Made by a program: the position numbers and the translations under genes
Assembly: GCA_903813345.2 (NCBI GenBank)
Contig: CAIIXF020000001.1
Location: forward strand, 248,001-312,000
Reading direction: 5' to 3'
From: Owenia fusiformis
Taxonomy: Eukaryota
DNA length: 64,000 nucleotides
Part shown: positions 2,011 to 29,700 of the stretch, piece after piece
Layout of the letters: each line of letters opens with the position of its first letter
Position numbering within the stretch: the first letter of the stretch is position 1
Notes under the pieces: model-generated
Told to the model about the DNA's origin: nothing
What the model saw: only the letters and a program-made list of their open reading frames with translations
Databases searched by the model: none

Positions 2011-2421
2011 TAACATGTTTCCCCGGGAAAATAACAGGGAATAAAATTGATATTCAAAAAATTTACATATCAGCCAAAATCCCGTAAATCCAGTAATTTC
2101 TCTAGTGTTATTAATCATTTATATTTTTAATTAAAACTTGTTAATAAAAGTAGAAAATGTTATATGATAAATTGTATCATTTTATGTCACAATCATTGGG
2201 TGATGACATATAAAAATTAAAAGTAAGTTTTAGAAAATCATTATTGAATAAATAGGTTATTGATGGTCGTGATGGAATATGAATTTTTTCCTTGAGGCCG
2301 ATATTGGCCTCAGAAAATATCATATTGACACTCGGGCTATCGCCCTCAATCAATTTGACATCTATTTTTGTTAATTACAAAATATACAAAGAAATCATGC
2401 ATTTTTGTGAATTCAGCTTAC

Positions 2422-2595
2422 TTGAACAAGTTGGTGGTATGCCACTCCATCCACCTTCCACGCAGGTTCTTAAGCTCTGTCCATTGAGCGAGTAACCCTC
2501 CATGCAACTGTAAAATGCCAGGTTACCAAAGCTGTTGCCATCGACCTTCACCATTCCATTCTTAGGGTTTGGTAGGGTCATGTTGCATGAAATTG
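2422..2595 (-). CDS. Exon: Sushi domain S4'
   Basis: PISCNMTLPNPKNGMVKVDGNSFGNLAFYSCMEGYSLNGQSLRTCVEGGWSGIPPTCS; acag acceptor, gtaagc donor. Confidence 0.92.
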
Positions 2596-5500
2596 CTGTA
2601 ATAAAAGGCAAATACTATGTCAAATACAGAAAAATGGGGATATTAGGTTTTTTGACTGTCAGGCTTGCAATTATATGATTGGTCAAAATCTGGTGACTTG
2701 TCATGGAAGATCTAAAAAATGTTCACTGGTCATGCTCACTCAGTAAATTATATAGTTATACAAATTATCATAGTTAGCATTACATATTATACCGGTTTGA
2801 ACATAAACATAGTTCAGAGCTATTAGAATTCCGTTTTTCTGCACCGCAACAGAAAAAAGTAGAATTTTTAGTTTTAGTTTTGCAAAAGTTTGCAGAATAT
2901 AGAATTTCTGTTGATTTTTGCGCAATTCATGCTTTGAAAACATAAATTGAACTGAAAGCTTACCTAGCCTTGTTGTAGGTGCTTGTAGATCATTTGAATC
3001 AATTTTAGCTCACTTTTGTAGCGATTTAAACAGAAAACGTTTTATTTTTTGAGGCTGCTTTGTAAGGAACACCAAAATATAAGAAGACTAGGAACACGTT
3101 TTCTATTGCTCCTAGCCAATATATCATCTTTATATTGTTACTAAATATAATTGTGTCCAAATACATGTACACATTAGAAATATATGGCGGTTTTATTTTG
3201 ATTTTCACACTATTTTGGCAAAAATTCCATGAAAAAATCCATGTTAAAATGCAGAATTTTTGCAGAATTTCACATTTTAGCTTGCAGAAATTTGATTTTT
3301 TCTTGCAGAATTTGCATTTTGTAGCACAGAATTCTAGTAGCTCTGATAGTTAGAAAGTACATAATATCATATAAAATTAAATGACATTACACCATATCTA
3401 ATGCATCAAAAATATATCAGTGATAAGTACAGGCATGGGTTCAGGGCTCAGGAGGGCTATCATTTCAATACTTTCAGAGATAATACTTCTCAAGTTAAAT
3501 TTTTTTTTAATCTTTAAAAAGGTTTTTGCCAACTGACTAATGTCATAATGATGTCACCTAGGGTGCAAAATATTTTTAATATGCTACAACATCGAAGTGG
3601 CACATCAAATATGACATGTTATTATTGAAAAGTGTGTTCTTTGTTCAATCTTTGCATTAATTGGTGTTAAAACATATTTTCAATCCTTACATTGGGCTTT
3701 TAACAATAACAATTTTGATCACATATGGTTTTCTAACTCATATTTATCAGCAATATTTCAAATGCAGACCTTAATATTATATCTCAAGATGAGCTTATAA
3801 AAACAGCAGCTGCTAAATTTTGTGTTAACTGCTGGTGTATGAAAAATAATATTAATCCGGCCCACAGCAATGAGAGCAGTAGGCTGTGAGAGGTTCCCCA
3901 CCTTTGAGTAATTATGTCTTAATATACAGGGTGTTCAAAAAAAAACGCAACCCAAAGAAATCGCTGTATCTTGAAAAATAGTGGTTCAATTATGTTCATA
4001 TTTTCAGGAAATAAAGGAGAGACTGTGTATGTATAGCTCCTGTAAATGGTTAGTTGTAAAATATGATGCCTTGGACACCTGCTCAAAAGACAGTTGTACT
4101 AGGAAAATACGAAAAACGCAGTCAGGGGTGACTGCAACCTCAAATAAAAAATTGAATAACTTTTTAACCATAGTGTTTTTGCTCTTCAAATTTGTCACAA
4201 ATCATCTTCATTCACTGTATGGTAAATCTGTAGAGTGAAATCAAAATCACTTCAGGGACTTTACAGTCATGGTTGAAATGATTTCAAATCGCACTCAAAC
4301 ACCCTGGTTCAGGGAGACTTAAGAAGGCATTTTGACCATGACTGTAAAGTCCCTAGAGTGATTTTGATGAAACTCCACAAATTCACCACACATTGAATGA
4401 GGATAATTTGTGCCAAATCTGAAGTGCCAAAACCATGGTTAGAAAGTTATTTGGTTTTATTGTTGTGGCTGTCACCTCTAACTGCGTTTTCATGTTTTCC
4501 TAGAACAACTGTCATTGGAGCAGGTGTTCAAGGCATCATGTTTTACAACTTACTGACAACAGGAGCTATACATACACAGTCTCTTCTTTCTTTTCCTGAA
4601 AAAATGAACATAATTGAATTAGTATTTTCCAAGATATAGTGATTTTCCATTCGCGTTTTTCGTATTTTGCTAGTACAACTGTCTTTTGAGCAAGGGTCCA
4701 AGACATCATGTTTTACAACTAACTAACAACAGGGGCTACACAGTCTCTTCTTTCTTTCCTGAAAATATGAACATAATTGGATGAGTATTTTCCAAGATAT
4801 AGCGATTTCCTTGGGTTGCGTTTTTTTTAACACCCTGTACACAAAAAAAGAATCCTTTCTATATATACTGTTTGCTTATATGGATATAAATTAGAAGCAA
4901 AATCCAACAATATAAAGCTTAAAATATGACCAAATTGATCTGTATGGCTATAAATTATGGACTGAACCATATGCCTGTAAAATATGAATATGACTAAAAT
5001 TGACTATTTGAGTTAAAAGTAAAATCCAGAATGACAAACAGAGGCTCTGTCTATATCTCAAACTTTGTTTAATGAGATGATGAGACAAGTGCATATAAAG
5101 CCTGCTTATAAAGTATGCATGTAAGCAGATGCATTTGGTTGGGAATGATGAATTTGAAAATGCTGCTCCTCACTGTTATGATGCTTTGTGGCATACTTGC
5201 TATTACAAAGACTCAGGAACTAAGTGGAGATGTCAATGTGATGAAAGGTATGCAAATATGATTAGCCTTTAGCAGATTAATTGATGTAGATGCAGCTCAG
5301 CTAGAAGTGATGTGAAAAGTTGTTCAATATTTAAAATTTTGTGAAGCTGACTGACCTGCTGGATGAAACAACTGAATTATTGTGAAATAACTTTTTAATT
5401 GTATATGCTTGTAAGGAGAGGTAAGTATGTAAGTAAAACGTATTGACCTGAAATTAGATGTGAACTGGTGAAGTATATTCAAAAGCGACATGAACAAGGA

Positions 5501-8500
5501 ATTAATATGACAAATCGCATTATCTAGTTGCTCACAATATTCAATTCTGACGTCTTATTTGAGCTTCTGAGAACTTGTAGATGATTTTGAAAAAAACTGG
5601 TCAATTTGAAGAAAGTTAAAAAAATACCTTTTTGACTTTTTTGACTTTGAAAAGGTCATTAACGAATCTTAAGTTAGATTTGAAAGGATATTAACTGTAT
5701 TGATGAATGGATGAAATGTAATAAGATGAATTTAAACTATAGTAAAACAAGATTAATGAAAATAGGAAATACCTCAAAGTATGGAATTGATAAAGATGCC
5801 ATATAACATTATCAAATAATGTAATTGAAAATGTTGAAACTTGTAAATATTTAGGTGTTATTGTGGATGACAAATTAGCATTCAAAGTACTTATTGACAA
5901 GCCCATGATATTGAAAAGCTTTCTTGTAAGATAGGTATTTTTAGAAGGCTTAAACCATTTGTTTCAAAGGAAGCACTCATCACAATTTATAATACAATCA
6001 TATTACCAGAATTTAATTACTGCTCTGGGGAGAATGTTATAATAAAATCTATCTGACTAGACTAGAGAAACTTCAAAAGATGGCAGCACAAATTAAACTG
6101 GGAGCTAATTTTGATGTTTCAAGTGGCACTTTACTTGAGTCCCTAAATTGGACTCCAATTCAGGAAATGATTAGATACAGGAAATCAATTTTAATGTACC
6201 AGACCATTTCAGGCATCTCTCCCCCATATATTTAGAACTGTTTCAAAGAGACAAAGTCTGTCCATAATTATGCTACTAGAGCAGTTGTGGAAAATTCACT
6301 TTATGTACCAAAACCTAAACTTGAAATATTTAAGAAAAGCATATCATATAGCGGTTCACATCTTTGGAACAAGCTTGATAAGACTGTCAAAGAGTCTGAT
6401 TCTGTAAACTCAAAGCATATAAACAATTGTATCAGATCAGAAAATGAAAATTATGTAAATGCATTATTTAAAGACATTGTTCCTTATATTCATGTAATTC
6501 TATAATACAGTAAGTTGTTCTCTATGTTTCATGTAAATGCATACTTTGAAGATGCATATATATGAAATTGTTCCATATGTCCTATATATCTATTTGTATG
6601 TTTCTATATTTATTGTACATATTGTAAATAATTGTAAATTATTACTGGGCCTCTAGGAAGACCAGTTTTGTACTGATAGAGCTACCCAGAATAAATATAG
6701 TTTTCAAATCAAATCAAATCAAATCAACTTCTGAAAACTTGTACAGTAGATGATTTTGAAAAAAACTGAAATCAGTATTTGTTAATTTCTTGGAAGTTAT
6801 TGATAGAGGTCCAATAAATAAATGAGCCATGTTAACATGAAAAGGGAGAAGAAGGTCATGAACGCAAATATGCAGGTTGGCCCGAAAATTAACATTTTAC
6901 AATGTGTTAAGTATATTATGGCTACATTATGCATCATGCTTGCTAAATGAACAACTGATGCTATGATAAAAAGATGCTTTGAGAAAAGGCATTAACGTGA
7001 CAAAATAGCACCACCTAGTTGATCACAATATTATGAGTTCAATCTTAAGTCAGATTTTAACTTCTGAGAACTTGTTGATTTCCAAAAAGTAGTCAATTTG
7101 AGGCAAGTTGAAAAATACCTTGAGAAGGGCATTGTAGATGATTTTGAAAAAAACTTGTAAAGTCAGATTTGAACAACTGAGAAATTGTAGATGGTTTTGA
7201 AAAATAATTGGTCAATGAGAAGCAAGTTGAAAAATACCTTTTTGACCTTGAGAATATCACTGAAGGTCAAATGCCAAATCTAAAGTCATTCAAGAGTTGA
7301 CCAATATGTTAATTTTGGATATTGTAGGACCTAATTAACTTGTTTTGACATGATTAAAATGCAAAACTATTATCATAAATTTTTGAAAAAATAATAAAAT
7401 GTTGTAAAACATTTATTTTGAATTGAACGTTTGATTACATTACATTTACCAAAATAAAGTTAAACAAGTATTTATTGATCACAGCCTAAACTAGGATTTG
7501 GAAATAGCCTGGGAAACAAATTGAATTTGATAATATTGAACAGGTAGTCAATATGTTTACTTTTTGTTTTCTATTAAAATGGATATTGATATTTTATAGA
7601 TGAACCAATCAAGAATGATATTTCTGATGAAAATCTTGAAGAGACAGTGTCAAGAAATAAAAGAAAGGAAAGGATTGGTTGCCCCCCAAGCTATTGGTGC
7701 CTGTTAAGATATATGAACATGTGATGCGTTGATCTAATCATACAAAATAATGTACACTGAAAGACAACCTTACGAGATACAGAGCCGTTTGCTATATGTC
7801 ACATTGTGTACACTTGATATTACATAATAAATATCAAATATATATTTATTCTACTTCCAACTATGAAATTCTTATGTGTTAAACAGGTATCAGGAACGTT
7901 GACTTGGGGATTCAACTTTGCAGTTTCCTGGTGAATTGACAGTGTAACATATCATAACCATCATTTCAAAATATTTAATGCACTAGTGTCTTCTGTGCCT
8001 GCCTCTTAATTCAAGCTCCCATCCTCATCAAAGTATCATACAAGACCACCCTGATATGTCATAATTCAAGCTCCCATCCTTATCAAAGTCTCATACAAGA
8101 CCACCCTGATATGTCATAATTCAAGCTCCCATCCTCATCAAAGTCTCATACAAGACCACCCTGATATGTCATAATTCAAGCTCCCATCCTTATCAAAGTC
8201 TCACACAAGACCACCCTGATATGTCATAATTCAAGCTCCCATCCTCATCAAAGTCTACCACCCTGATATGTCATAATTCAAGCTCCCATCCTTATCAAAG
8301 TCTCATACAAGACCACCCCGATATGTCATAATTCAAGCTCCCATCCTCATCAAAGTCTCACACAAGACCACCCTGATATGTCATAATTCAAGCTCCCATC
8401 CTTATCAAAGTCTCACACAAGACCACCCTGATATGTCATAATTCAGCTCCAATCCTCATCAGTCTCACACAAGACCATCCTGATATGTCATAATTCAAGC

Positions 8501-11500
8501 TCCCATCCTTATCAAAGTCTCATACAAGACCACCCTGATATGTCATAATTCAGCTCCAATCCTCATCAAAGTCTCATACAAGACCACCCTGATATGTCAT
8601 AATTCAAGCTCCCATCCTTATCAAAGTCTCATACAAGACCACCCTGATATGTCATAATTCAAGCTCCCATCCTTATCAAAGTCTCATACAAGACCACCCT
8701 GATATGTCATAATTCAGCTCCAATCCTCATCAAAGTCTCATACAAGACCACCCTGATATGTCATAATTCAAGCTCCCATCCTTATCAAAGTCTCATACAA
8801 GACCACCCTGATATGTCATAATTCAGCTCCAATCCTCATCAAAGTCTCATACAAGACCACCCTGATATGTCATAATTCAAGCTCCCATCCTTATCAAAGT
8901 CTCATACAAGACCACCCTGATATGTCATAATTCAAGCTCCCATCCTTATCAAAGTCTCATACAAGACCACCCTGATATGTCATAATTCAAGCTCCCATCC
9001 TTATCAAAGTCTCATACAAGACCACCCTGATATGTCATAATTCAAGCTCCCATCCTCATCAAAGTCTCACACAAGACCACCCTGATATGTCATAATTCAA
9101 GCTCCAATCCTCATCAAAGTCTCACACAAGACCACCCTGATATGTCATAATTCAAGCTCCCATCCTTATCAAAGTCTCATACAAGACCACCCTGATATGT
9201 CATAATTCAAGCTCCCATCCTTATCAAAGTCTCATACAAGACCACCCTGATATGTCATAATTCAAGCTCCCATCCTTATCAAAGTCTCATACAAGACCAC
9301 CCTGATATGTCATAATTCAAGCTCCCATCCTTATCAAAGTCTCACACAAGACCACCCTGATATGTCATAATTCAAGCTCCCATCCTTATCAAAGTCTCAT
9401 ACAAGACCACCCTGATATGTCATAATTCAAGCTCCCATCCTTATCAAAGTCTCATACAAGACCACCCTGATATGTCATAATTCAAGCTCCCATCCTTATC
9501 AAAGTCTCATACAAGACCACCCTGATATGTCATAATTCAGCTCCAATCCTCATCAAAGTCTCATACAAGACCACCCTGATATGTCATAATTCAAGCTCCC
9601 ATCCTTATCAAAGTCTCATACAAGACCACCCTGATATGTCATAATTCAAGCTCCCATCCTTATCAAAGTCTCATACAAGACCACCCTGATATGTCATAAT
9701 TCAAGCTCCCATCCTTATCAAAGTCTCATACAAGACCACCCTGATATGTCATAATTCAGCTCCAATCCTCATCAAAGTCTCATACAAGACCACCCTGATA
9801 TGTCATAATTCAAGCTCCCATCCTTATCAAAGTCTCATACAAGACCACCCTGATATGTCATAATTCAAGCTCCCATCCTTATCAAAGTCTCATACAAGAC
9901 CACCCTGATATGTCATAATTCAAGCTCCCATCCTCATCAAAGTCTCACACAAGACCACCCTGATATGTCATAATTCAAGCTCCAATCCTCATCAAAGTCT
10001 CACACAAGACCACCCTGATATGTCATAATTCAAGCTCCCATTCTCATCAAAGTCTCACACAAGACCACCCTGATATGTCATAATTCAAGCTCCCATCCTT
10101 ATCAAAGTCTCACACAAGACCACCCTGATATGTCATAATTCAAGCTCCAATCCTCATCAAAGTCTCATACAAGACCACCCTGATATGTCATAATTCAGCT
10201 CCAATCCTCATCATAGTCTCATACAAGACCACCCTGATAAGTCATAATTCAAGCTCCCATCCTCATCAAAGTCTCACACAAGACCACCCCAATATGTCAT
10301 AATTCAAACTCCCATCCTCATCAAAGTCTCACACAAGACAACCCTGATATGTCATAATTCAAGCTCCAATCCTCATCAAAGTCTCACACAAGACCACCCT
10401 GATATGTCATAATTCAAGCTCCCATTCTCATCAAAGTCTCACACAAGACCACCCTGATATGTCATAATTCAAGCTCCCATCCTTATCAAGGTCTCACACA
10501 AGACCACCCTGATATGTCATAATTCAAGCTCCCATCCTTATCAAAGTCTCACACAAGACCACCCTGATATGTCATAATTCAAGCTCCAATCCTCATCAAA
10601 GTCTCACACAAGACCACCCTGATATGTCATAATTCAAGCTCCCATCCTCATCAAAGTCTCACACAAGACCACCCTGATATGTCAAAATTCAAGCTCCCAT
10701 CCTCATCAAAGTCTCACACAAGACCAATCTGATATGACATAATTCAAGCTCCCATCCTCATCAAAGTCTCATACAAGACCACCCTGATATGTCATAATTC
10801 AAGCTCCAATCCTCATCAAAGTCTCACACAAGACCACCCTGATATGTCATAATTCAAGCTCCCATCCTCATCAAAGTCTCACACAAGACCACCCTGATAT
10901 GTCATAATTCAAGCTCCCATCCTTATCAAAGTCTCATACAAGACCACCCTGATATGTCATAATTCAAGCTCCCATCCTCATCAAAGTCTCACACAAGACC
11001 ACCCTGATATGTCATAATTCAAGCTCCCATCCTTATCAAAGTCTCATACAAGACCACCCTGATATGTCATAATTCAAGCTCCCATCCTTATCAAAGTCTC
11101 ATACAAGACCACCCTGATATGTCATAATTCAAGCTCCCATCCTCATCAAAGTCTCACACAAGACCACCCTGATATGTCATAATTCAAGCTCCAATCCTCA
11201 TCAAAGTCTCACACAAGACCACCCTGATATGTCATAATTCAAGCTCCCATCCTTATCAAAGTCTCACACAAGACCACCCTAATATGTCATAATTCAAGCT
11301 CCCATCCTCATCAAAGTCTCACACAAGACCACCCTGATATGTCATAATTCAAGCTCCCATCCTTATCAAGGTCTCACACAAGACCAATCTGATATGTCAT
11401 AATTCAAGCTCCCATCCTTATCAAAGTCTCACACAAGACCACCCTGATATGTCATAATTCAAGCTCCAATCCTCATCAAAGTCTCACACAAGACCACCCT

Positions 11501-14500
11501 GATATGTCATAATTCAAGCTCCCATCCTTATCAAAGTCTCACACAAGACCACCCTGATATGTCATAATTCAAGCTCCCATCCTCATCAAAGTCTCACACA
11601 AGACCACCCTGATATGTCATAATTCAAGCTCCCATCCTTATCAAAGTCTCACACAAGACCACCCTGATCAAGGTCTCACACAAGACCACCCTGATATGTC
11701 ATAATTCAAGCTCCAATCCTCATCAAAGTCTCACACAAGACCACCCTGATATGTCATAATTCAAGCTCCCATCCTTATCAAAGTCTCACACAAGACCACC
11801 CTGATATGTCATAATTCAAGCTCCCATCCTTATCAAAGTCTCACACAAGACCACCCTGATATGTCATAATTCAAGCTCCCATCCTCATCAAAGTCTCACA
11901 CAAGACCACCCTGATATGTCATAATTCAAGCTCCCATCCTTATCAAAGTCTCACACAAGACCACCCTGATATGTCATAATTCAAGCTCCAATCCTCATCA
12001 AAGTCTCACACAAGACCACCCTGATATGTCATAATTCAAGCTCCCATCCTTATCAAAGTCTCACACAAGACCACCCTGATATGTCATAATTCAAGCTCCC
12101 ATCCTTATCAAAGTCTCACACAAGACCACCCTGATATGTCATAATTCAAGCTCCCATCCTTATCAAAGTCTCATACAAGACCACCCTGATATGTCATAAT
12201 TCAAGCTCCCATCCTTATCAAAGTCTCACACAAGACCACCCTGATATGTCATAATTCAAGCTCCCATCCTTATCAAAGTATCATACAAGACCACCCTGAT
12301 ATGTCATAATTCAAGCTCCCATCCTTATCAAAGTCTCATACAAGACCACCCTGATATGTCATAATTCAAGCTCCCATCCTCATCAAAGTCTCACACAAGA
12401 CCACCCTGATATGTCATAATTCAAGCTCCAATCCTCATCAAAGTCTCACACAAGACCACCCTGATATGTCATAATTCAAGCTCCCATCCTTATCAAAGTC
12501 TCATACAAGACCACCCTGATATGTCATAATTCAAGCTCCCATCCTTATCAAAGTCTCATACAAGACCACCCTGATATGTCATAATTCAAGCTCCCATCCT
12601 TATCAAAGTCTCATACAAGACCACCCTGATATGTCATAATTCAAGCTCCCATCCTTATCAAAGTCTCACACAAGACCACCCTGATATGTCATAATTCAAG
12701 CTCCCATCCTTATCAAAGTCTCATACAAGACCACCCTGATATGTCATAATTCAAGCTCCCATCCTTATCAAAGTCTCATACAAGACCACCCTGATATGTT
12801 ATAATTCAAGCTCCCATCCTTATCAAAGTCTCATACAAGACCACCCTGATATGTCATAATTCAGCTCCAATCCTCATCAAAGTCTCATACAAGACCACCC
12901 TGATATGTCATAATTCAAGCTCCCATCCTTATCAAAGTCTCATACAAGACCACCCTGATATGTCATAATTCAAGCTCCCATCCTTATCAAAGTCTCATAC
13001 AAGACCACCCTGATATGTCATAATTCAAGCTCCCATCCTCATCAAAGTCTCACACAAGACCACCCTGATATGTCATAATTCAAGCTCCAATCCTCATCAA
13101 AGTCTCACACAAGACCACCCTGATATGTCATAATTCAAGCTCCCATTCTCATCAAAGTCTCACACAAGACCACCCTGATATGTCATAATTCAAGCTCCCA
13201 TCCTTATCAAAGTCTCACACAAGACCACCCTGATATGTCATAATTCAAGCTCCAATCCTCATCAAAGTCTCATACAAGACCACCCTGATATGTCATAATT
13301 CAGCTCCAATCCTCATCATAGTCTCATACAAGACCACCCTGATAAGTCATAATTCAAGCTCCCATCCTCATCAAAGTCTCACACAAGACCACCCCAATAT
13401 GTCATAATTCAAACTCCCATCCTCATCAAAGTCTCACACAAGACAACCCTGATATGTCATAATTCAAGCTCCAATCCTCATCAAAGTCTCACACAAGACC
13501 ACCCTGATATGTCATAATTCAAGCTCCCATTCTCATCAAAGTCTCACACAAGACCACCCTGATATGTCATAATTCAAGCTCCCATCCTTATCAAGGTCTC
13601 ACACAAGACCACCCTGATATGTCATAATTCAAGCTCCCATCCTTATCAAAGTCTCACACAAGACCACCCTGATATGTCATAATTCAAGCTCCAATCCTCA
13701 TCAAAGTCTCACACAAGACCACCCTGATATGTCATAATTCAAGCTCCCATCCTCATCAAAGTCTCACACAAGACCACCCTGATATGTCAAAATTCAAGCT
13801 CCCATCCTCATCAAAGTCTCACACAAGACCAATCTGATATGTCATAATTCAAGCTCCCATCCTCATCAAAGTCTCATACAAGACCACCCTGATATGTCAT
13901 AATTCAAGCTCCAATCCTCATCAAAGTCTCACACAAGACCACCCTGATATGTCATAATTCAAGCTCCCATCCTCATCAAAGTCTCACACAAGACCACCCT
14001 GATATGTCATAATTCAAGCTCCCATCCTTATCAAAGTCTCATACAAGACCACCCTGATATGTCATAATTCAAGCTCCCATCCTCATCAAAGTCTCACACA
14101 AGACCACCCTGATATGTCATAATTCAAGCTCCCATCCTTATCAAAGTCTCATACAAGACCACCCTGATATGTCATAATTCAAGCTCCCATCCTTATCAAA
14201 GTCTCATACAAGACCACCCTGATATGTCATAATTCAAGCTCCCATCCTCATCAAAGTCTCACACAAGACCACCCTGATATGTCATAATTCAAGCTCCAAT
14301 CCTCATCAAAGTCTCACACAAGACCACCCTGATATGTCATAATTCAAGCTCCCATCCTTATCAAAGTCTCACACAAGACCACCCTAATATGTCATAATTC
14401 AAGCTCCCATCCTTATCAAAGTCTCACACAAGACCACCCTGATATGTCATAATTCAAGCTCCCATCCTTATCAAAGTCTCATACAAGACCACCCTGATAT

Positions 14501-17500
14501 GTCATAATTCAAGCTCCCATCCTTATCAAAGTCTCACACAAGACCACCCTGATATGTCATAATTCAAGCTCCCATCCTTATCAAAGTCTCACACAAGACC
14601 ACCCTGATATGTCATAATTCAAGCTCCCATCCTTATCAAAGTCTCACACAAGACCACCCTGATATGTCATAATTCAAGCTCCCATCCTTATCAAGGTCTC
14701 ACACAAGACCACCCTGATATGTCATAATTCAAGCTCCCATCCTTATCAAAGTCTCACACAAGACCACCCTGATATGTCATAATTCAAGCTCCCATCCTTA
14801 TCAAAGTCTCATACAAGACCACCCTGATATGTCATAATTCAAGCTCCCATCCTTATCAAAGTCTCACACAAGACCACCCTGATATGTCATAATTCAAGCT
14901 CCCATCCTTATCAAAGTCTCATACAAGACCACCCTGATATGTCATAATTCAAGCTCCCATCCTCATCAAAGTCTCACACAAGACCACCCTGATATGTCAT
15001 AATTCAAGCTCCCATCCTTATCAAAGTCTCATACAAGACCACCCTGATATGTCATAATTCAAGCTCCCATCCTTATCAAAGTCTCACACAAGACCACCCT
15101 GATATGTCATAATTCAAGCTCCCATCCTTATCAAAGTCTCATACAAGACCACCCTGATATGTCATAATTCAAGCTCCCATCCTCATCAAAGTCTCACACA
15201 AGACCACCCTGATATGTCATAATTCAAGCTCCCATCCTTATCAAAGTCTCACACAAGACCACCCTGATATGTCATAATTCAAGCTCCCATCCTCATCAAA
15301 GTCTCACACAAGACCACCCTGATATGTCATAATTCAAGCTCCCATCCTTATCAAAGTCTCACACAAGACCACCCTGATATGTCATAATTCAATCTCCCAT
15401 CCTCATCAAAGTCTCACACAAGACCAACCTGATATGTCATAATTCAAGCTCCCATCCTTATCAAAGTCTCACACAAGACCACCCTGATATGTCATAATTC
15501 AAGCTCCCATCCTCATCAAAGTCTCACACAAGACCACCCTGATATGTCATAATTCAAGCTCCCATCCTTATCAAAGTCTCACACAAGACCACCCTGATAT
15601 GTCATAATTCAAGCTCCCATCCTTATCAAAGTCTCACACAAGACCACTCTGATATGTCATAATTCAAGCTCCCATCCTTATCAAAGTCTCACACAAGACC
15701 ACCCTGATATGTCATAATTCAAGCTCCCATCCTTATCAAGGTCTCACACAAGACCAATCTGATATGTCATAATTCAAGCTCCCATCCTTATCAAAGTCTC
15801 ACACAAGACCACTCTGATATGTCATAATTCAAGCTCCCATCCTTATCAAAGTCTCACACAAGACCACCCTGATATGTCATAATTCAAGCTCCCATCCTTA
15901 TCAAAGTCTCACACAAGACCACTCTGATATGTCATAATTCAAGCTCCCATCCTTATCAAAGTCTCATACAAGACCACTCTGATATGTCATAATTCAAGCT
16001 CCCATCCTTATCAAAGTCTCACACAAGACCACCCTGATATGTCATAATTCAAGCTCCCATCCTTATCAAAGTCTCACACAAGACCACTCTGATATGTCAT
16101 AATTCAAGCTCCCATCCTTATCAAAGTCTCATACAAGACCACCCTGATATGTCATAATTCAAGCTCCCATCCTTATCAAAGTCTCACACAAGACCACCCT
16201 GATATGTCATAATTCAAGCTCCCATCCTTATCAAAGTCTCACACAAGACCACCCTGATATGTCATAATTCAAGCTCCCATCCTTATCAAAGTCTCACACA
16301 AGACCACCCTGATATGTCATAATTCAAGCTCCCATCCTTATCAAAGTCTCACACAAGACCACCCTGATATGTCATAATTCAAGCTCCCATCCTTATCAAA
16401 GTCTCACACAAGACCACCCTGATATGTCATAATTCAAGCTCCCATCCTTATCAAAGTCTCACACAAGACCACCCTGATATGTCATAATTCAAGCTCCCAT
16501 CCTTATCAAAGTCTCATACAAGACCACCCTGATATGTCATAATTCAAGCTCCCATCCTTATCAAAGTCTCACACAAGACCACCCTGATATGTCATAATTC
16601 AAGCTCCCATCCTCATCAAAGTCTCACACAAGACCACCCTGATATGTCATAATTCAAGCTCCCATCCTTATCAAAGTCTCACACAAGACCACCCTGATAT
16701 GTCATAATTCAAGCTCCCATCCTCATCAAAGTCTCACACAAGACCACCCTGATATGTCATAATTCAAGCTCCAATCCTCATCAAAGTCTCACACAAGACC
16801 ACTCTGATATGTCATAATTCAAGCTCCCATCCTTATCAAAGTCTCATACAAGACCACCCTGATATGTCATAATTCAAGCTCCCACCCTTATCAAAGTCTC
16901 ACACAAGACCACCCTGATATGTCAGGTTAACATTTAGAGAGAAAACTCAACCAACTTACGATCACATCTTGGGTCAGAGCCCGAGAATTTTCCATTTGGC
17001 TGACATGTTCTTTTGGATTGGCCATCTGTGACGAGGGTGTATCCACGGTTGCACTTGTAATCTACGGTTTCTCCCACAGGGAAATCGTTAAAGGCTCCTA
17101 TCTTCTCACCATTAGCTGGGTCTCCTGGGTCACCACAGGATGTTGTGCCTTCATCTAGATAGGAAATTCAAAGTACAGTGAAAATTTCCAAGTGGAACAC
17201 TTCTTAGAGGTACAAAGAGATGCACTTATACAGGTTTTACTGTAATGAACAAAGCTTTAGAATGCACAAACATGCCCAAAGGTAGGATTGTGGTCTCATG
17301 GATCAAACAGAGGTCAGCAAAATGAAAACTGCTCTACCATTGCGCTATATGGGTGGAGAATACCTTATCTGATCTGTGGAGAACCCATTACAAATAAACT
17401 TACTATTGCAAAAGGGTAGAGTTCCACTCCAGGTGCCATCGTCCTGGCATGTACGGGTTGTCTGTCCATTCAGGCCCACTCCTGCTGCACAACGGAAAGT

Positions 17501-17691
17501 GGCCAAACTGCCAATATTGAGGCCATCAGAGAGGTCAACGGCACCTTTAGAAGGGAGGCCAGGGTCGCCACACTTCACCACTGGAAACACATGTAAAAAT
17601 ACAGTGAGGTATCAACGGGGGTCCACTTACACAGATTTCTTCTTCTTCTTACTATAAAGCACAGTGGTCTGTTTGTCTTTCTGTCTTTCTG

Positions 17692-17724
<33 letters not shown>

Positions 17725-20700
17725 GTCCAGACATCTCCTCCTAGAGCTTTTGGTCTTGGGCCTTCATACTTGGTCGATAAACTAAGTGAGAAAGTGGGCA
17801 TTCTACGAAGGTCAGAAGTCAAGGTCATTCCAAAGTCAATTTATAGGTATTGGCATTTTAAGACCCTGGGGCCTGCTGTTACCCTTGGGGATCATGATTA
17901 GTTGACCTGAAGTCAAAGTCAATGTTTATGTTCCGAGGTCATCTCAAGGTCTAATGTGAAAATCAGGTATTTATGTTTTAAAGCCTTTGGGCAAGTCCAC
18001 CTCAATTCAAGAATCAAACAAGGTCAAATGATCAATATACAGGTATTTAGCATTTTATGAGGGCTGCTGTGACCCTTGGTGATCCACTCAAACGGATAGA
18101 TTGCTAGTTATTGTACATGTAATATCATTTAAGATTCTATATTCATCTATTAATACATCATTAATTCATTGTTTTAATTTTTGGCTGCAGAGGTCTTAAT
18201 TTATACATGTACCAGCAATACATGTGTAGTTATATGTGCTTCTATACCAACACAACATTGGCACTTTTTTGGCAGCTTTTTGAAGTAATTTCTTTAAATT
18301 ATTATTACCATTAGATTCTTTGAAAACATAGGATAAGGGCTATGCTAAGGGCTGATGTGAAAAAGTCAGTCCACCTCGGTGGGAATTGAACCCACAACCT
18401 ACCGATTAGATCTCGAATGCTCTTCCAGTTGAGCTACGGAGCCGACTGCTTTAACACAACACTGCATAAATGGCTATCCTCGTATTTATCACTACATTAT
18501 GATTACTTACAAAGACAGTCAGGCAGCACACCATCCCAGTCCCCATACTCCATACACATAACGGGGTACTCTTTCATACCATTCCTAAAGTTGTATTTGA
18601 TGTTGCACTTGTATGTCAAGATATAGCCTTGTGGGTAGAATCCTGCAGTATTCTGAGGTTGTCCATTCTGAAGCCTTGGTAGCAGAGAAGATGAACAGCC
18701 AACCACTGAAAACAATGACACATTGTAAATATAATGAGCAGCCAACCACTGCAAGCAATGACACATTGTAAATATAATGAGCAGCCAACCACTGAAAACA
18801 ATGACACATTATAAATATAATGAGCAGCCAACCACTGAAAACAATGACACATTGTAAATATAATGAGCAGCCAACCACTGAAAATAATGACACATTGTAA
18901 ATATAATGAGCAGCCAACTACTGAAAACAATGACACATTGTAAATATAATGAGCAGCCAACTACTGAAAACAATGACACATTGTAAATATAATGAGGAGC
19001 CAACCACTGCAAACAATGACACATTGTAAATATAATGAGCAGCCAACTACTGAAAACAATGACACATTGTAAATATAATGAGCAGCCAACCACTGAAAAC
19101 AATGACACATTGTAAATATAATGAGCAGCCAACCACTGAAAACAATGACACATTGTAAATATAATGAGCAGCCAACCACTGAAAATAATGACACACTGTA
19201 AACATAATGAGCAGCCTAACACTGAAAGCAATGACACATTGTAAATATAATGAGTAGCCAACTACTGAAAACAATGACACATTGTAAATATAATGAGTAG
19301 CCAACCAGTAAGTGACATTATCATCAGAAAATTAATGTCACTGCTGTTTTTTTAATATAAGTTTCCATACGTTATATAAAAAATAATCAAAAAATATAAA
19401 AATCGGATAGAAGGGGAAGTTGATAGAGGGTGAGTAATATGTCTTTGAGATGGAACTTTATACAAATTTGTGAATTTGTGAAATGAACTCAGTTACTAAG
19501 TAAGAAACTTGATGTTACACCTCTGAAGAGTGAAAAACAGGGAAGTTTGGAGTTATACGTAATAAAGTCAAGTAACATATTGTATCATGTCTTATACTCA
19601 TTACTCTCCCCCTCCATCCAATTTGTATATAACGTATGGAAACTTATTTTTAAAAACAGCAATGACATTAAATTTGTGATGATAATGTCACTTACAAATT
19701 ATTTTTTTTTGCCTGATTTATTAACATTGAATTTTGCATGTTGGTGACAATGCACCTTTTTTAATAGATCTTATATCTTAGAAGTGTATCGGTCATTTAG
19801 CAATTCAATTGCAAACTTTCTCTTGAAAAAATAAATCATCCAGATTAGTTGAATATTCTTGCAGAAATTGCCTACTCCCCCTCCATCCATTTTGTTTGAT
19901 CATCGGGCGTGCATGTTTTATATATATATATATAACTGCCACGATGGACTTATAATAATCAGGATGAAATTGACTTATGGTATGACCTTGACCTATAACC
20001 TTTTGATCATCAAGGTTGTTAAACAGGGAGATAGATGCAAGTTAGAAATAACATAAATAACAGAACAGAGCTATTACCCTTGTATTTGATCCAGAATCCT
20101 TTATCTGTATCATCCAGGTTGAGCTCAGTGTCAAAGGTCAACCTTACTTCACTCTCTGTACTGGTCATTGGAGCAATAGTCTTTCTCCCACAGAGATTCA
20201 GTTTGTCTTTGAAACCTGAAAGCATAATATGTAATCATTTATGTAAAAGTCAATCTATTTAAATGTCAATAACTATACAGTAAAACCTGTGCATATGAAA
20301 CACTCTCCACACTACAGATTGTCCTTAGATTTCACTTTGGAATAGAACACTTTCAAAGTATTTAAATGTCAATAACAATACAGTAAAACCTGTGCATATG
20401 AAACACTCTCCACACTACAGATTGTCCTTAGATTTCACTTTGGAATAGAACACTTTCAAAGTATTTAAATGTCAATAACTATACAGTAAAACCTGTGCAT
20501 ATGAAACACTCTCCACATTACAGATTGTCCTTAGATTTCACTTTGGAATAGAACACATTCAAAGTATTTAAATGTCAATAACTATACAGCAAAACCTGTG
20601 CATATGAAACACTCTCCACACTACAGATTGTCCTTAGATTTCACTTTGGAATAGAACACTTTCAAAGTATTTAAATGTCAATAACTATACAGTAAAACCT

Positions 20701-23700
20701 GTGCATATGAAACACTCTCCACACTACAGATTGTCCTTAGATTTCACTTTGGAAAAGAACACTTTCAAAGTATTTAAATGTCAATAACTATACAGTAAAA
20801 CCTGTGCATATGAAACACTCTCCACATTACAGATTGTCCTTAGATTTCACTTTGGAATAGAACACATTCAATCTATTTAAATGTCAATAACTATACAGTA
20901 AAACCTGTGCATAGGGAACACTCTCCACATTACAGATTGTCCTTAGATTTCACTTTAGAATAGAACACTTTCAAAGTATTTAAATGTCAATAACTATACA
21001 GTAAAACCTGTGCATAGGGAACACTCTCCACATTACAGATTGTCCTTAGATTTCACTTTGGAATAGAACACATTCAATCTATTTAAATGTCAATAACTAT
21101 ACAGTAAAACCTGTGCATAGGGAACACTCTCCACATTACAGATTGTCCTTAGATTTCACTTTAGAATAGAACACTTTCAAAGTATTTAAATGTCAATAAC
21201 TATACAGTAAAACCTGTGCATAGGGAACACTCTCCACACTACAGATTGTCCTTAGATTTCACTTTGGAATAGAACACTTTCAAAGTATTTAAATGTCAAT
21301 AACTATACAGTAAAACCTGTGCATATGAAACACTCTCCACATTACAGATTGTCCTTAGATTTCACTTTGGAAAAGAACACTTTCAAAGTATTTAAATGTC
21401 AATAACAATACAGTAAAACCTGTGCATATGAAACACTCTCCACATTACAGATTGTCCTTAGATTTCACTTTAGAATAGAACACTTTCAAAGTATTTAAAT
21501 GTCAATAACTATACAGTAAAACCTGTGCATATGAAACACTCTCCACATTACAGATTGTCCTTAGATTTCACTTTAGAATAGAACACTTTCAAAGTATTTA
21601 AATGTCAATAACTATACAGTAAAACCTGTGCATAGGGAACACTCTCCACATTACAGATTGTCCTTAGATTTCACTTTGGAATAGAACACTTTCAAAGTAT
21701 TTAAATGTCAATAACAATACAGTAAAACCTGTGCATATGAAACACTCTCCACACTACAGATTGTCCTTAGATTTCACCGCGGAATAGAACACTTTCAAAG
21801 TATTTAAATGTCAATAACTATACAGTAAAACCTGTGCATATGAAACACTCTCCACACTACAGATTGTCCTTAGATTTCACTTTGGAATAGAACACTTTCA
21901 AAGTATTTAAATGTCAATAACAATACAGTAAAACCTGTGCATATGAAACACTCTCCACACTACAGATTGTCCTTAGATTTCACCGCGGAATAGAACACTT
22001 TCAAAGTATTTAAATGTCAATAACTATACAGTAAAACCTGTGCATATGAAACGCTCTCCACACTACAGATTGTCCTTAGATTTCACTTTGGAATAGAACA
22101 CTTTCAAAGTATTTAAATGTCAATAACTATACAGTAAAACCTGTGCATATGAAACACTCTCCACACTACAGATTGTCCTTAGATTTCACCGCGGAATAGA
22201 ACACTTTCAAAGTATTTAAATGTCAATAACTACACAGTAAAACCTGTGCATAGGGAACACTCTCCACACTACAGATTGTCCTTAGATTTCACTTTGGAAT
22301 AGAACACTTTCAAAGTATTTAAATGTCAATAACTATACAGTAAAACCTGTGCATAGGGAACACTCTCCACATTACAGATTGTCCTTAGATTTCACTTTGA
22401 AATAGAACACTTTCAAAGTATTTAAATGTCAATAACTATACAGTAAAACCTGTGCATAGGGAACACTCTCCACATTACAGATTGTCCTTAGATTTCACTT
22501 TGAAATAGAACACTTTCAAAGTATTTAAATGTCAATAACTATACAGTAAAACCTGTGCATAGGGAACACTCTCCACACTACAGATTGTCCTTAGATTTCA
22601 CTTTGGAATAGAACACTTTCAAAGTATTTAAATGTCAATAACTATACAGTAAAACCTGTGCATATGAAACACTCTCCACACTACAGATTGTCCTTAGATT
22701 TCACTTTGGAATAGAACACATTCAAAGTATTTAAATGTCAATAACTATACAGTAAAACCTGTGCATATGAAACACTCTCCACACTACAGATTGTCCTTAG
22801 ATTTCACTTTAGAATAGAACACTTTCAAAGTATTTAAATGTCAATAACTATACAGTAAAACCTGTGCATAGGGAACACTCCCCACACTACAGATTGTCCT
22901 TAGATTTCACTTTAGAATAGAACACTTTCAAAGTATTTAAATGTCAATAACTATACAGTAAAACCTGTGCATATGAAACGCTCTCCACACTACAGATTGT
23001 CCTTAGATTTCACTTTGGAATAGAACACTTTCAAAGTATTTAAATGTCAATAACTATACAGTAAAACCTGTGCATATGAAACACTCTCCACACTACAGAT
23101 TGTCCTTAGATTTCACTTTGGAAAAGAACACTTTCAAAGTATTTAAATGTCAATAACTATACAGTAAAACCTGTGCATATGAAACACTCTCCACACTACA
23201 GATTGTCCTTAGATTTCACTTTGGAAAAGAACACTTTCGAAGTATTTAAATGTCAATAACTATACAGTAAAACCTGTGCATAGGGAACACTCTCCACACT
23301 ACAGATTGTCCTTAGATTTCACTTTGGAATAGAACACCTTCAAAGTATTTAATTGTCAATAACTATACAGTAAAACCTGTGCATAGGGAACACTCTCCAC
23401 ACTACAGATTGTCCTTAGATTTCACTTTGGAATAGAACACTTTCAAAGTATTTAAATGTCAATAACTATACAGTAAAACCTGTGCATATGAAACACTCTC
23501 CACACTACAGATTGTCCTTAGATTTCACTTTGGAATAGAACACTTTCAAAGTATTTAAATGTCAATAACTATACAGTAAAACCTGTGCATATGAAACACT
23601 CTCCACACTACAGATTGTCCTTAGATTTCACTTTGGAATAGAACACATTCGAAGTATTTAAATGTCAATAACTATACAGTAAAACCTGTGCATAGGGAAC

Positions 23701-26700
23701 ACTCTCCACACTACAGATTGTCCTTAGATTTCACTTTGGAAAAGAACACTTTCGAAGTATTTAAATGTCAATAACTATACAGTAAAACCTGTGCATATGA
23801 AACACTCTCCACACTACAGATTGTCCTTAGATTTCACTTTGGAATAGAACACTTTCAAAGTATTTAAATGTCAATAACTATACAGTAAAACCTGTGCATA
23901 TGAAACACTCTCCACACTACAGATTGTCCTTAGATTTCACTTTGGAAAAGAACACTTTCAAAGTATTTAAATGTCAATAACTATACAGTAAAACCTGTGC
24001 ATAGGGAACACTCTCCACACTACAGATTGTCCTTAGATTTCACTTTAGAATAGAACACTTTCAAAGTATTTAAATGTCAATAACTATACAGTAAAACCTG
24101 TGCATAGGGAACACTCTCCACATACAGATTGTCCTTAGATTTCACTTTGGAGTAGAACACATTCAAAGTATTTAAATGTCAATAACTATACAGTAAAACC
24201 TGTGCATATGAAACACTCTCCACACTACAGATTGTCCTTAGATTTCACTTTGGAAAAGAACACTTTCAAAGTATTTAAATGTCAATAACTATACAGTAAA
24301 ACCTGTGCATATGAAACACTCTCCACACTACAGATTGTCCTTAGATTTCACTTTGGAATAGAACACTTTCAAAGTATTTAAATGTCAATAACTATACAGT
24401 AAAACCTGTGCATATGAAACACTCTCCACACTACAGATTGTCCTTAGATTTCACTTTGGAATAGAACACTTTCAAAGTATTTAAATGTCAATAACTATAC
24501 AGTAAAACCTGTGCATATGAAACACTCTCCACACTACAGATTGTCCTTAGATTTCACTTTGGAATAGAACACTTTCAAAGTATTTAAATGTCAATAACTA
24601 TACAGTAAAACCTGTGCATATGAAACACTCTCCACACTACAGATTGTCCTTAGATTTCACTTTGGAAAAGAACACTTTCGAAGTATTTAAATGTCAATAA
24701 CTATACAGTAAAACCTGTGCATAGGGAACACTCTCCACACTACAGATTGTCCTTAGATTTCACTTTGGAAAAGAACACTTTCGAAGTATTTAAATGTCAA
24801 TAACTATACAGTAAAACCTGTGCATATGAAACACTCTCCACACTACAGATTGTCCTTAGATTTCACTTTGGAATAGAACACTTTCAAAGTATTTAAATGT
24901 CAATAACTATACAGTAAAACCTGTGCATATGAAACACTCTCCACACTACAGATTGTCCTTAGATTTCACTTTGGAAAAGAACACTTTCAAAGTATTTAAA
25001 TGTCAATAACTATACAGTAAAACCTGTGCATAGGGAACACTCTCCACACTACAGATTGTCCTTAGATTTCACTTTAGAATAGAACACTTTCAAAGTATTT
25101 AAATGTCAATAACTATACAGTAAAACCTGTGCATAGGGAACACTCTCCACATACAGATTGTCCTTAGATTTCACTTTGGAGTAGAACACATTCAAAGTAT
25201 TTAAATGTCAATAACTATACAGTAAAACCTGTGCATATGAAACACTCTCCACACTACAGATTGTCCTTAGATTTCACTTTGGAAAAGAACACTTTCAAAG
25301 TATTTAAATGTCAATAACTATACAGTAAAACCTGTGCATATGAAACACTCTCCACACTACAGATTGTCCTTAGATTTCACTTTGGAATAGAACACTTTCA
25401 AAGTATTTAAATGTCAATAACTATACAGTAAAACCTGTGCATATGAAACACTCTCCACACTACAGATTGTCCTTAGATTTCACTTTGGAATAGAACACTT
25501 TCAAAGTATTTAAATGTCAATAACTATACAGTAAAACCTGTGCATATGAAACACTCTCCACACTACAGATTGTCCTTAGATTTCACTTTGGAATAGAACA
25601 CTTTCAAAGTATTTAAATGTCAATAACTATACAGTAAAACCTGTGCATATGAAACACTCTCCACACTACAGATTGTCCTTAGATTTCACTTTGGAATAGA
25701 ACACTTTCAAAGTATTTAAATGTCAATAACTATACAGTAAAACCTGTGCATAGGGAACACTCTCCACATACAGATTGTCCTTAGATTTCACTTTGGAATA
25801 GAACACTTTCAAAGTATTTAAATGTCAATAACAATACAGTAAAACCTGTGCATAGGGAACACTCTCCACACTACAGATTGTCCTTAGATTTCACTTTGGA
25901 ATAGAACACTTTCAAAGTATTTAAATGTCAATAACTATACAGTAAAACCTGTGCATATGAAACACTCTCCACACTACAGATTGTCCTTAGATTTCACTTT
26001 GGAATAGAACACTTTCAAAGTATTTAAATGTCAATAACTATACAGTAAAACCTGTGCATAGGGAACACTCTCCACATACAGATTGTCCTTAGATTTCACT
26101 TTGGAATAGAACACTTTCAAAGTATTTAAATGTCAATAACTATACAGTAAAACCTGTGCATATGAAACACTCTCCACACTACAGATTGTCCTTAGATTTC
26201 ACTTTGGAATAGAACACATTCAAAGTATTTAAATGTCAATAACTATACAGTAAAACCTGTGCACAGGGAACACTCTCCACACTACAGATTGTCCTTAGAT
26301 TTCACTTTGGAATAGAACACTTTCAAAGTATTTAAATGTCAATAACTATACAGTAAAACCTGTGCATAGGGAACACTCTCCACATACAGATTGTCCTTAG
26401 ATTTCACTTTGGAATAGAACACTTTCAAAGTATTTAAATGTCAATAACTATACAGTAAAACCTGTGCATATGAAACACTCTCCACACTACAGATTGTCCT
26501 TAGATTTCACTTTGGAAAAGAACACTTTCGAAGTATTTAAATGTCAATAACTATACAGTAAAACCTGTGCATAGGGAACACTCTCCACATACAGATTGTC
26601 CTTAGATTTCACTTTGGAATAGAACACTTTCAAAGTATTTAAATGTCAATAACTACACAGTAAAACCTGTGCATAGGGAACACTCTCCACACTACAGATT

Positions 26701-29700
26701 GTCCTTAGATTTCACTTGTGAATAGAACACTTTCAAAGTATTTAAATGTCAATAACAATACAGTAAAACCTGTGCATATGAAACACTCTCCACACTACAG
26801 ATTGTCCTTAGATTTCACTTTGGAATAGAACACTTTCAAAGTATTTAAATGTCAATAACAATACAGTAAAACCTGTGCATATGAAACACTCTCCACACTA
26901 CAGATTGTCCTTAGATTTCACTTTGGAATAGAACACTTTCAAAGTATTTAAATGTCAATAACTATACAGTAAAACCTGTGCATATGAAACACTCTCCACA
27001 CTACAGATTGTCCTTAGATTTCACTTTGGAATAGAACACTTTCAAAGTATTTAAATGTCAATAACTATACAGTAAAACCTGTGCATATGAAACACTCTCC
27101 ACACTACAGATTGTCCTTAGATTTCACTTTGGAATAGAACACATTCAAAGTATTTAAATGTCAATAACTATACAGTAAAACCTGTGCACAGGGAACACTC
27201 TCCACACTACAGATTGTCCTTAGATTTCACTTTGGAATAGAACACATTCAAAGTATTTAAATGTCAATAACTATACAGTAAAACCTGTGCACATGGAACA
27301 CTCTCCACACTACAGATTGTCCTTAGATTTCACTTTGGAATAGAACACATTCAAAGTATTTAAATGTCAATAACTATACAGTAAAACCTGTGCACAGGGA
27401 ACACTCTCCACACTACAGATTGTCCTTAGATTTCACTTTGGAATAGAACACTTTCAAAGTATTTAAATGTCAATAACTATACAGTAAAACCTGTGCACAG
27501 GGAACACTCTCCACACTACAGATTGTCCTTAGATTTCACTTTGGAATAGAACACTTTCAAAGTATTTAAATGTCAATAACTATACAGTAAAACCTGTGCA
27601 TAGGGAACACTCTCCACATACAGATTGTCCTTAGATTTCACTTTGGAATAGAACACTTTCAAAGTATTTAAATGTCAATAACTATACAGTAAAACCTGTG
27701 CATATGAAACACTCTCCACACTACAGATTGTCCTTAGATTTCAATTTTGAATAGAACACTTTCAAAGTATTTAATTGTCAATAACAATACAGTAAAACCT
27801 GTGCATAGGGAACACTCTCCACACTACAGATTGTCCTTAGATTTCACCGCGGAATAGAACACTTTCAAAGTATTTAAATGTCAATAACTATACAGTAAAA
27901 CCTGTGCATATGAAACACTCTCCACACTACAGATTGTCCTTAGATTTCAATTTTGAATAATACACATTCAAAGTATTTAAATGTCAATAACTATACAGTA
28001 AAACCTGTGCATATGAAACACTCTCCACACTACAGATTGTCCTTAGATTTCACTTTGGAAAAGAACACTTTCAAAGTATTTAAATGTCAATAACTATACA
28101 GTAAAACCTGTGCATATGAAACACTCTCCACACTACAGATTGTCCTTAGATTTCACTTTGGAATAGAACACTTTCAAAGTATTTAATTGTCAATAACTAT
28201 ACAGTAAAACCTGTGCATATGAAACACTCTCCACACTACAGATTGTCCTTAGATTTCACTTTAGAATAGAACACTTTCAAAGTATTTAAATGTCAATAAC
28301 TATACAGTAAAACCTGTGCATATGAAACACTCTCCACATACAGATTGTCCTTAGATTTCAATTTTGAATAGAACACTTTCAAAGTATTTAAATGTCAATA
28401 ACTATACAGTAAAACCTGTGCATAGGGAACACTCTCCACATACAGATTGTCCTTAGATTTCACTTTGGAATAGAACACTTTCAAAGTATTTAAATGTCAA
28501 TAACTACACAGTAAAACCTGTGCATAGGGAACACTCTCCACACTACAGATTGTCCTTAGATTTCAATTTTGAATAGAACACTTTCAAAGTATTTAAATGT
28601 CAATAACTATACAGTAAAACCTGTGCATAGGGAACACTCTCCACATACAGATTGTCCTTAGATTTCACTTTGGAATAGAACACTTTCAAAGTATTTAAAT
28701 GTCAATAACTATACAGTAAAACCTGTGCATAGGGAACACTCTCCACACTACAGATTGTCCTTAGATTTCACTTTGGAATAGAACACTTTCGAAGTATTTA
28801 AATGTCAATAATTATACAGTAAAACCTGTGCATATGAAACACTCTCCACACTACAGATTGTCCTTAGATTTCACTTTGAATAGAACACTTTCAAAGTATT
28901 TAAATGTCAATAACAATACAGTAAAACCTGTGCATATGAAACACTCTCCACACTACAGATTGTCCTTAGATTTCACTTTGGAATAGAACACTTTCAAAGT
29001 ATTTAAATGTCAATAACTATACAGTAAAACCTGTGCATAGGGAACACTCTCCACACTACAGATTGTCCTTAGATTTCACTTTGGAATAGAACACATTCAA
29101 AGTATTTAAATGTCAATAACTATACAGTAAAACCTGTGCACAGGGAACACTCTCCACACTACAGATTGTCCTTAGATTTCACTTGTGAATAGAACACTTT
29201 CAAAGTATTTAAATGTCAATAACTATACAGTAAAACCTGTGCATATGAAACACTCTCCACACTACAGATTGTCCTTAGATTTCACTTTGGAAAAGAACAC
29301 ATTCAAAGTATTTAAATGTCAATAACTATACAGTAAAACCTGTGCATAGGGAACACTCTCCACACTACAGATTGTCCTTAGATTTCAATTTTGAATAATA
29401 CACATTCAAAGTATTTAAATGTCAATAACAATACAGTAAAACCTGTGCATATGAAACACTCTCCACACTACAGATTGTCCTTAGATTTCACTTTGGAATA
29501 GAACACTTTCAAAGTATTTAAATGTCAATAACTATACAGTAAAACCTGTGCATATGAAACACTCTCCACACTACAGATTGTCCTTAGATTTCACTTTGGA
29601 ATAGAACACTTTCAAAGTATTTAAATGTCAATAACTATACAGTAAAACCTGTGCATATGAAACACTCTCCACACTACAGATTGTCCTTAGATTTCAATTT

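Follow-up and report, generated by a model that had tools for sequence, protein, structure and literature searches.

We describe a small two-exon gene on the + strand of a 64,000-nucleotide (nt) stretch of the Owenia fusiformis genome (GenBank assembly GCA_903813345.2, contig CAIIXF020000001.1, positions 248,001 to 312,000; hereafter the window, in whose own numbering all positions are given). With moderate confidence, we propose that this gene encodes the precursor of a secreted cyclic signalling peptide of the neuropeptide or hormone kind, which would be made in a restricted tissue or at a restricted stage and act on a receptor. The gene itself is real, spliced and read from the + strand, and its two-exon structure, as described in a first-pass annotation made from the letters of the window, was confirmed. 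The predicted product of 75 amino acids (aa) carries a seven-residue ring, CPPSYWC, which by its sequence appears to belong to the C-P-P-G-[L/Y/F]-W-C class, a class that is repeated in anthozoan precursors and is also found in Conus venom.

A spliced two-exon gene on the + strand

The coding part of exon 1 (5145..5247, + strand) comprises 34 codons and the first base of codon 35, and its product is a signal-like N-terminus together with the beginning of a pro-region. The coding part of exon 2 (7600..7724, + strand) opens with the bases that finish codon 35 and continues through residues 35-75 to a TGA at 7722-7724. Between the two lies a phase 1 GT..AG intron of 2,352 nt (5248..7599, + strand) with the donor AAG/GTATGC (GTATGC from 5248) and the acceptor TTTTATAG/AT; its 3' end is an AT-rich tract followed by the AG at 7598-7599. 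On re-reading the sequence, we found the frame open exactly as the first-pass annotation had drawn it, with exons 5145-5247 and 7600-7724 joined at canonical phase-1 sites: the 228 nt of the joined frame yield 75 aa and one stop, which is terminal only. Neither exon has a second copy within the window (tblastn and blastn).

We compared sequencing runs X1, X5, X12 and X13 (4 of 14 runs of one organism) with positions 4900-7950. In X5, whose contigs are of RNA type, a 169-nt contig (record 9) lies on 5079-5247 with 0 differences and ends exactly at the donor. A second contig of 268 nt (record 16) places its letters 29-268 on 7598-7837, with 28 extra letters ahead; these 28 loose letters and the two ambiguous AG letters add up to 30, as would be expected of the overlap between neighbouring contigs assembled from 31-letter words. 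In the unique intron, at 6838-6939 and 7348-7551, X5 has a depth of 0, and the same holds at 4900-5001 and 7858-7950 (zero beyond 7857). RNA-type contigs that end at the donor and begin at the acceptor bear out the predicted transcript joining 5247 to 7600, and because GT..AG fits only the + strand, this spliced transcript is read as + strand. X1 behaves in a DNA-like manner: its genomic pieces, at 4965-5586 and 7425-7923, run contiguously over both junctions and differ little from the window; the locus is therefore not an assembly artefact and is present outside the assembly. In X12 and X13, two raw RNA runs of which about 12 million reads apiece were used (about 6 in 100 per run), exon depth was 0 to 0.41, and this near-absence of exon reads suggests that expression is restricted or low.

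The RNA-type contigs also delimit the untranslated parts. The 5' part (5079..5144, + strand) has its extent set by X5 record 9, and the 3' part (7725..7837, + strand) runs to the contig end at 7837, which is 6 nt past an AATAAA at 7826-7831. This AATAAA lies 102 nt 3' of the stop, in agreement with the roughly 100 nt given by the first-pass annotation. The same annotation had pointed to a TATAAA upstream of the ATG; the position holds (5094-5099, 46 nt upstream of ATG 5145), but a role as promoter is not shown because the X5 contig already begins at 5079 and so includes the motif in the transcript. That contig also contains a short upstream ORF (open reading frame) beginning at ATG 5080. A further ATG, at 5115, is in frame with the one at 5145 and is not separated from it by a stop; its use would add 10 residues and make an 85-aa product possible (ORF 5115..5261).

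Predicted processing of the precursor

The layout that had been claimed for the product, namely a hydrophobic N-terminus, an acidic spacer, RNKR and a tail with two Cys, is borne out by the residue composition. Residues 1-23 are hydrophobic, with a grand average of hydropathy (GRAVY) of 1.57, and residues 1-19 reach 1.94 with one Lys in front; a start at ATG 5115 would lengthen the N-region before this hydrophobic stretch. Residues 24-52 form the acidic spacer (9 D+E in 29 residues), with an isoelectric point (pI) of 4.05. RNKR, read from the sequence as an R-x-K-R convertase-type site, occupies residues 53-56 (7653..7664, + strand) and is directly followed by KER (57-59), which makes a second R-x-x-R together with R56. 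R-x-K-R and R-x-x-R are cleavage sites of furin and related proprotein convertases (PC-type). As had been stated, the 19-aa tail after RNKR holds exactly two Cys in a C-X5-C arrangement, C62 and C68.

The predicted released peptide (7665..7721, + strand) would span residues 57-75, a length of 19 aa, and would shorten to 16 aa with a cut behind R59; the calculated reduced masses are about 2361 Da for the 19-aa and about 1947 Da for the 16-aa form. It has a pI of 8.86 with K+R 3 and D+E 1, and it is without Gly or a basic amidation signal. Its ring, CPPSYWC (C62-C68, 7680..7700, + strand), is the part in common with the CPPG[L/Y/F]WC family described below, and is followed by a 7-residue tail, LLRYMNM, and then by the stop.

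We propose the following route from precursor to peptide. The hydrophobic N-terminus would be removed co-translationally as a signal peptide, with the cut roughly behind A19 or T23, both of which satisfy the small-residue rule at -1 and -3. A furin/PC-type convertase would remove the acidic pro-region at RNKR56, perhaps with a second cut after R59, and oxidation of C62 and C68 would close the 7-residue ring within a peptide of 16-19 aa. The tail LLRYMNM should stay on the ring because neither an amidation Gly nor a basic site comes after it. Monobasic cuts go with a basic residue at -4, -6 or -8, and a cut after R71 was set aside, there being no basic residue at any of these positions. The released cyclic peptide would act on a receptor as a signal.

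Relatives of the ring and competing readings

A phmmer search with the 40-aa exon 2 peptide against 1.84 billion representatives returned three matches (E values 3.6e-5, 6.3e-5 and 6.0e-4), each aligned in 3-9 stretches, so that the E values rest on summed repeats. All three have a signal-like N-terminus and a ring repeated between basic sites: AGCPPGLWCGKKR four times in one, CPPGFWC three times in another, and CPPGYWC with variants about ten times in the third. A profile of these matches found 81 proteins at E ≤ 0.01 (8,000 candidates scored). The named relatives come from Nematostella, Stylophora, Pocillopora, Acropora, Montipora, Desmophyllum and Actinia, all of them Anthozoa, and are annotated as uncharacterised or misnamed. 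The first-pass annotation had recognised no known family; that statement no longer stands now that multi-copy CPPG[L/Y/F]WC precursors have been found, all named ones anthozoan.

We then tabulated the 496 C-x5-C rings in 82 relatives, of which 219 are CPPGLWC and 81 are CPPGYWC. Pro is found at position 2 in 436 of these rings and at position 3 in 328; position 4 has Gly in 440 and Ser in 9, position 5 has Leu, Tyr or Phe in 450, and position 6 has Trp in 392. GKKR comes after 128 rings and FEKR before 109, with KKKR, RKKR or xxKR after many others. At least two rings are present in 81 of the 82 proteins, the number ranging from 2 to more than 10 copies per protein. Pfam holds no model for the CPPG[L/Y/F]WC family and gave no match for either exon. 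The relatives do match Lustrin_cystein, at profile positions ~23-44 of 46 only, which we read as a shared CPxGxxC sub-motif and not as membership. Word-index searches with the 40-aa exon 2 peptide returned no identical or near-identical protein, either at 71-2000 aa or at 22-70 aa, a result that is not proof of novelty, and the ESM Atlas gave no usable match for exon 2.

We also searched a profile of 372 distinct ring units against all ORFs in the six frames of the window, 3,171 in number and 89,457 aa in total. The exon 2 ORF came first with an E value of 0.026, the next match having an E value of 3.2, and of the 45 C-X5-C strings in these ORFs the exon 2 ring alone has the form CPxxxWC. Judged on sequence, the match of exon 2 to the ring family appears to be more than chance. 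The likeness to the anthozoan precursors takes in putative secretion, a 7-residue ring with P2, P3, an aromatic residue or Leu at position 5 and W6, and basic cleavage sites shortly before the ring; the window's CPPSYWC equals CPPGYWC at 6 of 7 positions.

A metagenome scan with one relative, P0003, located multi-copy CPPGFWC/CPIGFWC precursors at L001 54-551, L002 304-1035 and L003 2127-2485. These loci are AT-rich (29-36% G+C) and show no resemblance to the window DNA, and L003 also has an ORF that we read by eye as an animal retrotransposon fragment. A fourth metagenome locus, high-GC and bacterial, was discarded as a spurious match. The precursors of the three AT-rich loci suggest that the family reaches beyond the named anthozoans into further AT-rich animal genomes.

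One relative may already have a link to the nervous system. The NvLWamide-like gene of Nematostella (Nv242283), known from a paper on NvLWamide-like neurons, is predicted to release peptides printed as QCPPGLWGC in passages of PMC6152798. The Nematostella relative P0045 carries CPPGLWCGKKR and CPVGLWCGKKR and is probably this gene, although the peptide printed for the latter is QCPPGLWGC. The cnidarian GLWamides, as presented in passages of the same paper, have a PPGLW core in common with the CPPGLWC relatives (PMC6152798). They differ from the window peptide in being linear and Trp-amidated, whereas the latter has SYW and not GLW, is predicted to be cyclic and is without an amidation signal. 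In the main-text passages covered of the paper on Nematostella receptors, a cyclic CPPGLWC peptide is not mentioned.

Receptor-directed signalling is favoured here over defence because the relatives are multi-copy neuropeptide-type precursors, one of them is probably a neuronal marker, and the peptide is weakly cationic. A number of observations weigh against the signalling reading, some in the transcript data and others in the family comparison. Among the former, the assignment of X5 to RNA is a tool's guess only. We infer the 28 loose letters of X5 record 16 to be the end of exon 1. Depth in the X5 bin 5206-5307 is 9.28, which is above what record 9 alone gives, and record 10 of the same run matches 5399-5550 without a difference. 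This X5 depth falls early in the intron, with none in the later unique intron. This depth in the early intron suggests that an unspliced form, or an alternatively or early-ended one, coexists with the spliced transcript and is without the peptide; read-through of the unspliced form meets a stop after four more codons. In addition, the X5 contig contains the upstream ATGs 5080 and 5115.

Taken further, such observations could mean that the locus produces a spliced non-coding or repeat-driven transcript in which the frame and the ring are fortuitous or no longer used. The transcript is short, its X5 contig depth is about 8-9 and it is missing from 2 of 2 raw RNA runs; its main ATG has other ATGs ahead of it, its intron is packed with high-copy repeats, an unspliced form coexists, and the word-index searches brought up no identical or near-identical protein. 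We nevertheless consider this reading very unlikely in view of a frame that stays open across a phase-1 junction and that combines a signal-like start, an acidic spacer and R-x-K-R. No second CPxxxWC, moreover, occurs in the six-frame ORFs with their 89,457 aa, the ring ranks first against the family profile, and the exons are unique in the window and not repeat-derived.

On the side of the family comparison, the window gene has a single ring, and no further ring unit occurs in any frame of the window. Its ring has Ser at position 4 (9 of 496 family rings) as opposed to Gly (440 of 496), is not followed by a basic or Gly-basic site, and bears a 7-aa tail. An intron interrupts the pro-region of the window gene, in contrast to the relatives, which were called as single ORFs of 91-521 aa. 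No orthologue was present among the proteins found in our searches. The likeness is confined to the ring and a few preceding basic residues, and single stretches score 10-14 bits, which leaves room for convergence.

Some of these differences would also follow if the gene were what is left, as a single unit, of a decayed multi-copy CPPGxWC precursor gene, still transcribed but with a product not processed in the manner of the family. Only one unit is present, another residue stands in place of Gly4, the ring has lost the basic and amidation sites behind it, and the tail runs to the stop. Against this, the signal-like start is complete, the R-x-K-R just ahead of the ring is intact, the splice sites are clean and there is a poly(A) signal. 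Nor are there traces of further units nearby in any frame, and we hold such decay to be highly improbable.

A further explanation keeps the processing proposed above and changes the purpose: the product would be a defence, venom or antimicrobial peptide, exported against other organisms as contryphans are. The precursor is small and single-copy; its pro-region is acidic, and the peptide forms its extreme C-terminal end. A single-copy precursor with a C-terminal peptide is the conopeptide-type layout, and the contryphan peptide likewise forms the C-terminal end of a small single-copy precursor, as in the window layout. The ring class is also common to contryphan-Bt1 and Be828, of the O2 superfamily, found in venom (passages of PMC12631695 and PMC7601563). 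Against this, the net charge of about +2 (K+R 3, D+E 1) is weak for a cationic antimicrobial peptide, the window peptide has neither a PWC triad nor an amidation signal, and the larger set of relatives consists of multi-copy neuropeptide-type precursors. The antimicrobial and toxin readings that the first-pass annotation had entertained found no direct support, and we regard a role in defence as unlikely.

The contryphan likeness noted in that annotation is nonetheless better founded than was known at the time, a Pro-Pro contryphan, GCPPGLWC-amide, having been published (passages of PMC12631695 and PMC7601563). The Conus peptide Be828 is GCPPGLWC-amide and is called contryphan-like (in a passage of PMC12631695), and contryphan-Bt1, from Conus eburneus venom, is the form with hydroxyproline, GCOPGLWC-amide, of the O2 superfamily (in a passage of PMC7601563). 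With these two the window peptide has in common a 23-membered 7-residue ring, Gly before the first Cys, Pro-Pro at positions 2-3 and the final W-C. A passage of PMC12631695 names as hallmarks of contryphans a PWC triad together with C-terminal amidation, Pro at both position 2 and position 5, and a D-residue at position 3. The last is a post-translational change, and the residue encoded at position 3 in the window is Pro. Of these and related features, the window peptide has the 7-residue ring, Pro at position 2 and the W-C end. It departs from them at position 5, which is Tyr, so that there is no PWC triad (Be828, in the same passages, is also without this Pro); and after the ring, where no Gly follows C68 and seven residues precede the stop, so that the ring carries a 7-aa tail. 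That the gene is an endogenous contryphan-type gene of a bilaterian outside the cone snails seems to us quite doubtful. As it lacks defining features of both the anthozoan family and the contryphans, we file it as a variant of the CPPxxWC cyclic-peptide kind and as a member of neither.

Anthozoan proteins carry the unit CPPGLWCGKKR up to about 10 times, and the repeat unit of P0002, a protein on a 304-kilobase (kb) ENA contig, would, if processed, be the same octapeptide-amide as contryphan-Bt1/Be828. In the literature, we found no paper linking the anthozoan CPPGLWCGKKR units with contryphan-Bt1/Be828, and the ring string CPPSYWC was not found. CPPGxWC or 'contryphan-like' peptides appeared, in the main texts searched, in cone snails and in the NvLWamide-like passage only.

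If it is nonetheless an endogenous contryphan-type gene of a bilaterian outside the cone snails, the window gene would link the anthozoan CPPGLWC-amide precursors, the identical venom peptide GCPPGLWC-amide of Conus and a single-copy bilaterian form, and would speak for an ancient eumetazoan family of cyclic signalling peptides; contryphans would then have been recruited from this family or would mimic it in prey. The core of the ring ties the window gene to a large cyclic CPPGxWC family of sea anemones and corals, of which our literature searches turned up hardly any account, and the single-copy, tailed form without an amidation signal would be a natural variant for asking which features of the ring a receptor reads. 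The window form would also help to decide whether contryphans arose from an endogenous signalling peptide or imitate one. Short two-exon peptide genes are missed by ORF-based and by many homology-based annotations; the present gene combines transcript support with a recognisable active core.

Genomic surroundings of the gene

The peptide gene lies inside a 14-kb repeat-filled gap between two Sushi exons on the - strand, which we presume to belong to a host gene: one in the downstream flank at 2375..2614 (PF00084, E value 1.4e-08) and one in the upstream flank at 16934..17167 (PF00084, E value 2.1e-12). Further Pfam matches on the - strand mark Sushi exons at 17345-17611, 57156-57440, 58110-58424 and 59200-59508 and CUB exons at 48662-48961 and 56610-56837. 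The gene had been described as nested antisense within an intron of a CUB/Sushi gene. Its place between two - strand Sushi exons agrees with that description, and it is nested only if both exons belong to one gene.

The window as a whole is satellite-rich, with 33% G+C, a composition reminiscent of bivalve genomes, and more than half of it is tandem repeat. We located tandem arrays at 1-1383, 8007-16924, 20256-32599, 40311-41037, 48976-55804 and 62584-63481, with periods of 68, 55, 103, 45, 52 and 73 base pairs (bp), mostly in the introns of the host gene; the 55-bp and 103-bp arrays have a strong GC skew. The intron of the peptide gene contains very high-copy repeats at 5512-5715 and 6940-7347, for which summed contig depth reaches up to 76,253, unique DNA in X1 having a depth of about 7-12. 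Among raw RNA reads this intronic repeat is strongly strand-biased (631 vs 97 in X12), and a 166-bp tandem form related to it is present at 33412-33828. Between about 5716 and 6740, the same intron holds what we read by eye as a retrotransposon fragment.

Searches of the window with Rfam and ARAGORN found a tRNA-Arg(TCT)-like element at 18369-18444 on the - strand (Rfam 36.8 bits, also called by ARAGORN) and nothing besides it. The element adjoins a 43-bp tandem array at 18691-19307 and, instead of being a gene, may form the leading part of a tRNA-derived repeat. Finally, a single-exon ORF of 185 aa at 41262-41819 on the + strand has a zf-RING_5 match with an E value of 3.7e-4, which is weaker than the Pfam cut-off. 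Its product starts with MG and has a His-rich tail of HGASHK repeats, and its exact sequence is present in the ESM Atlas and absent from a 15-billion protein collection. This ORF may be a second nested + strand gene.

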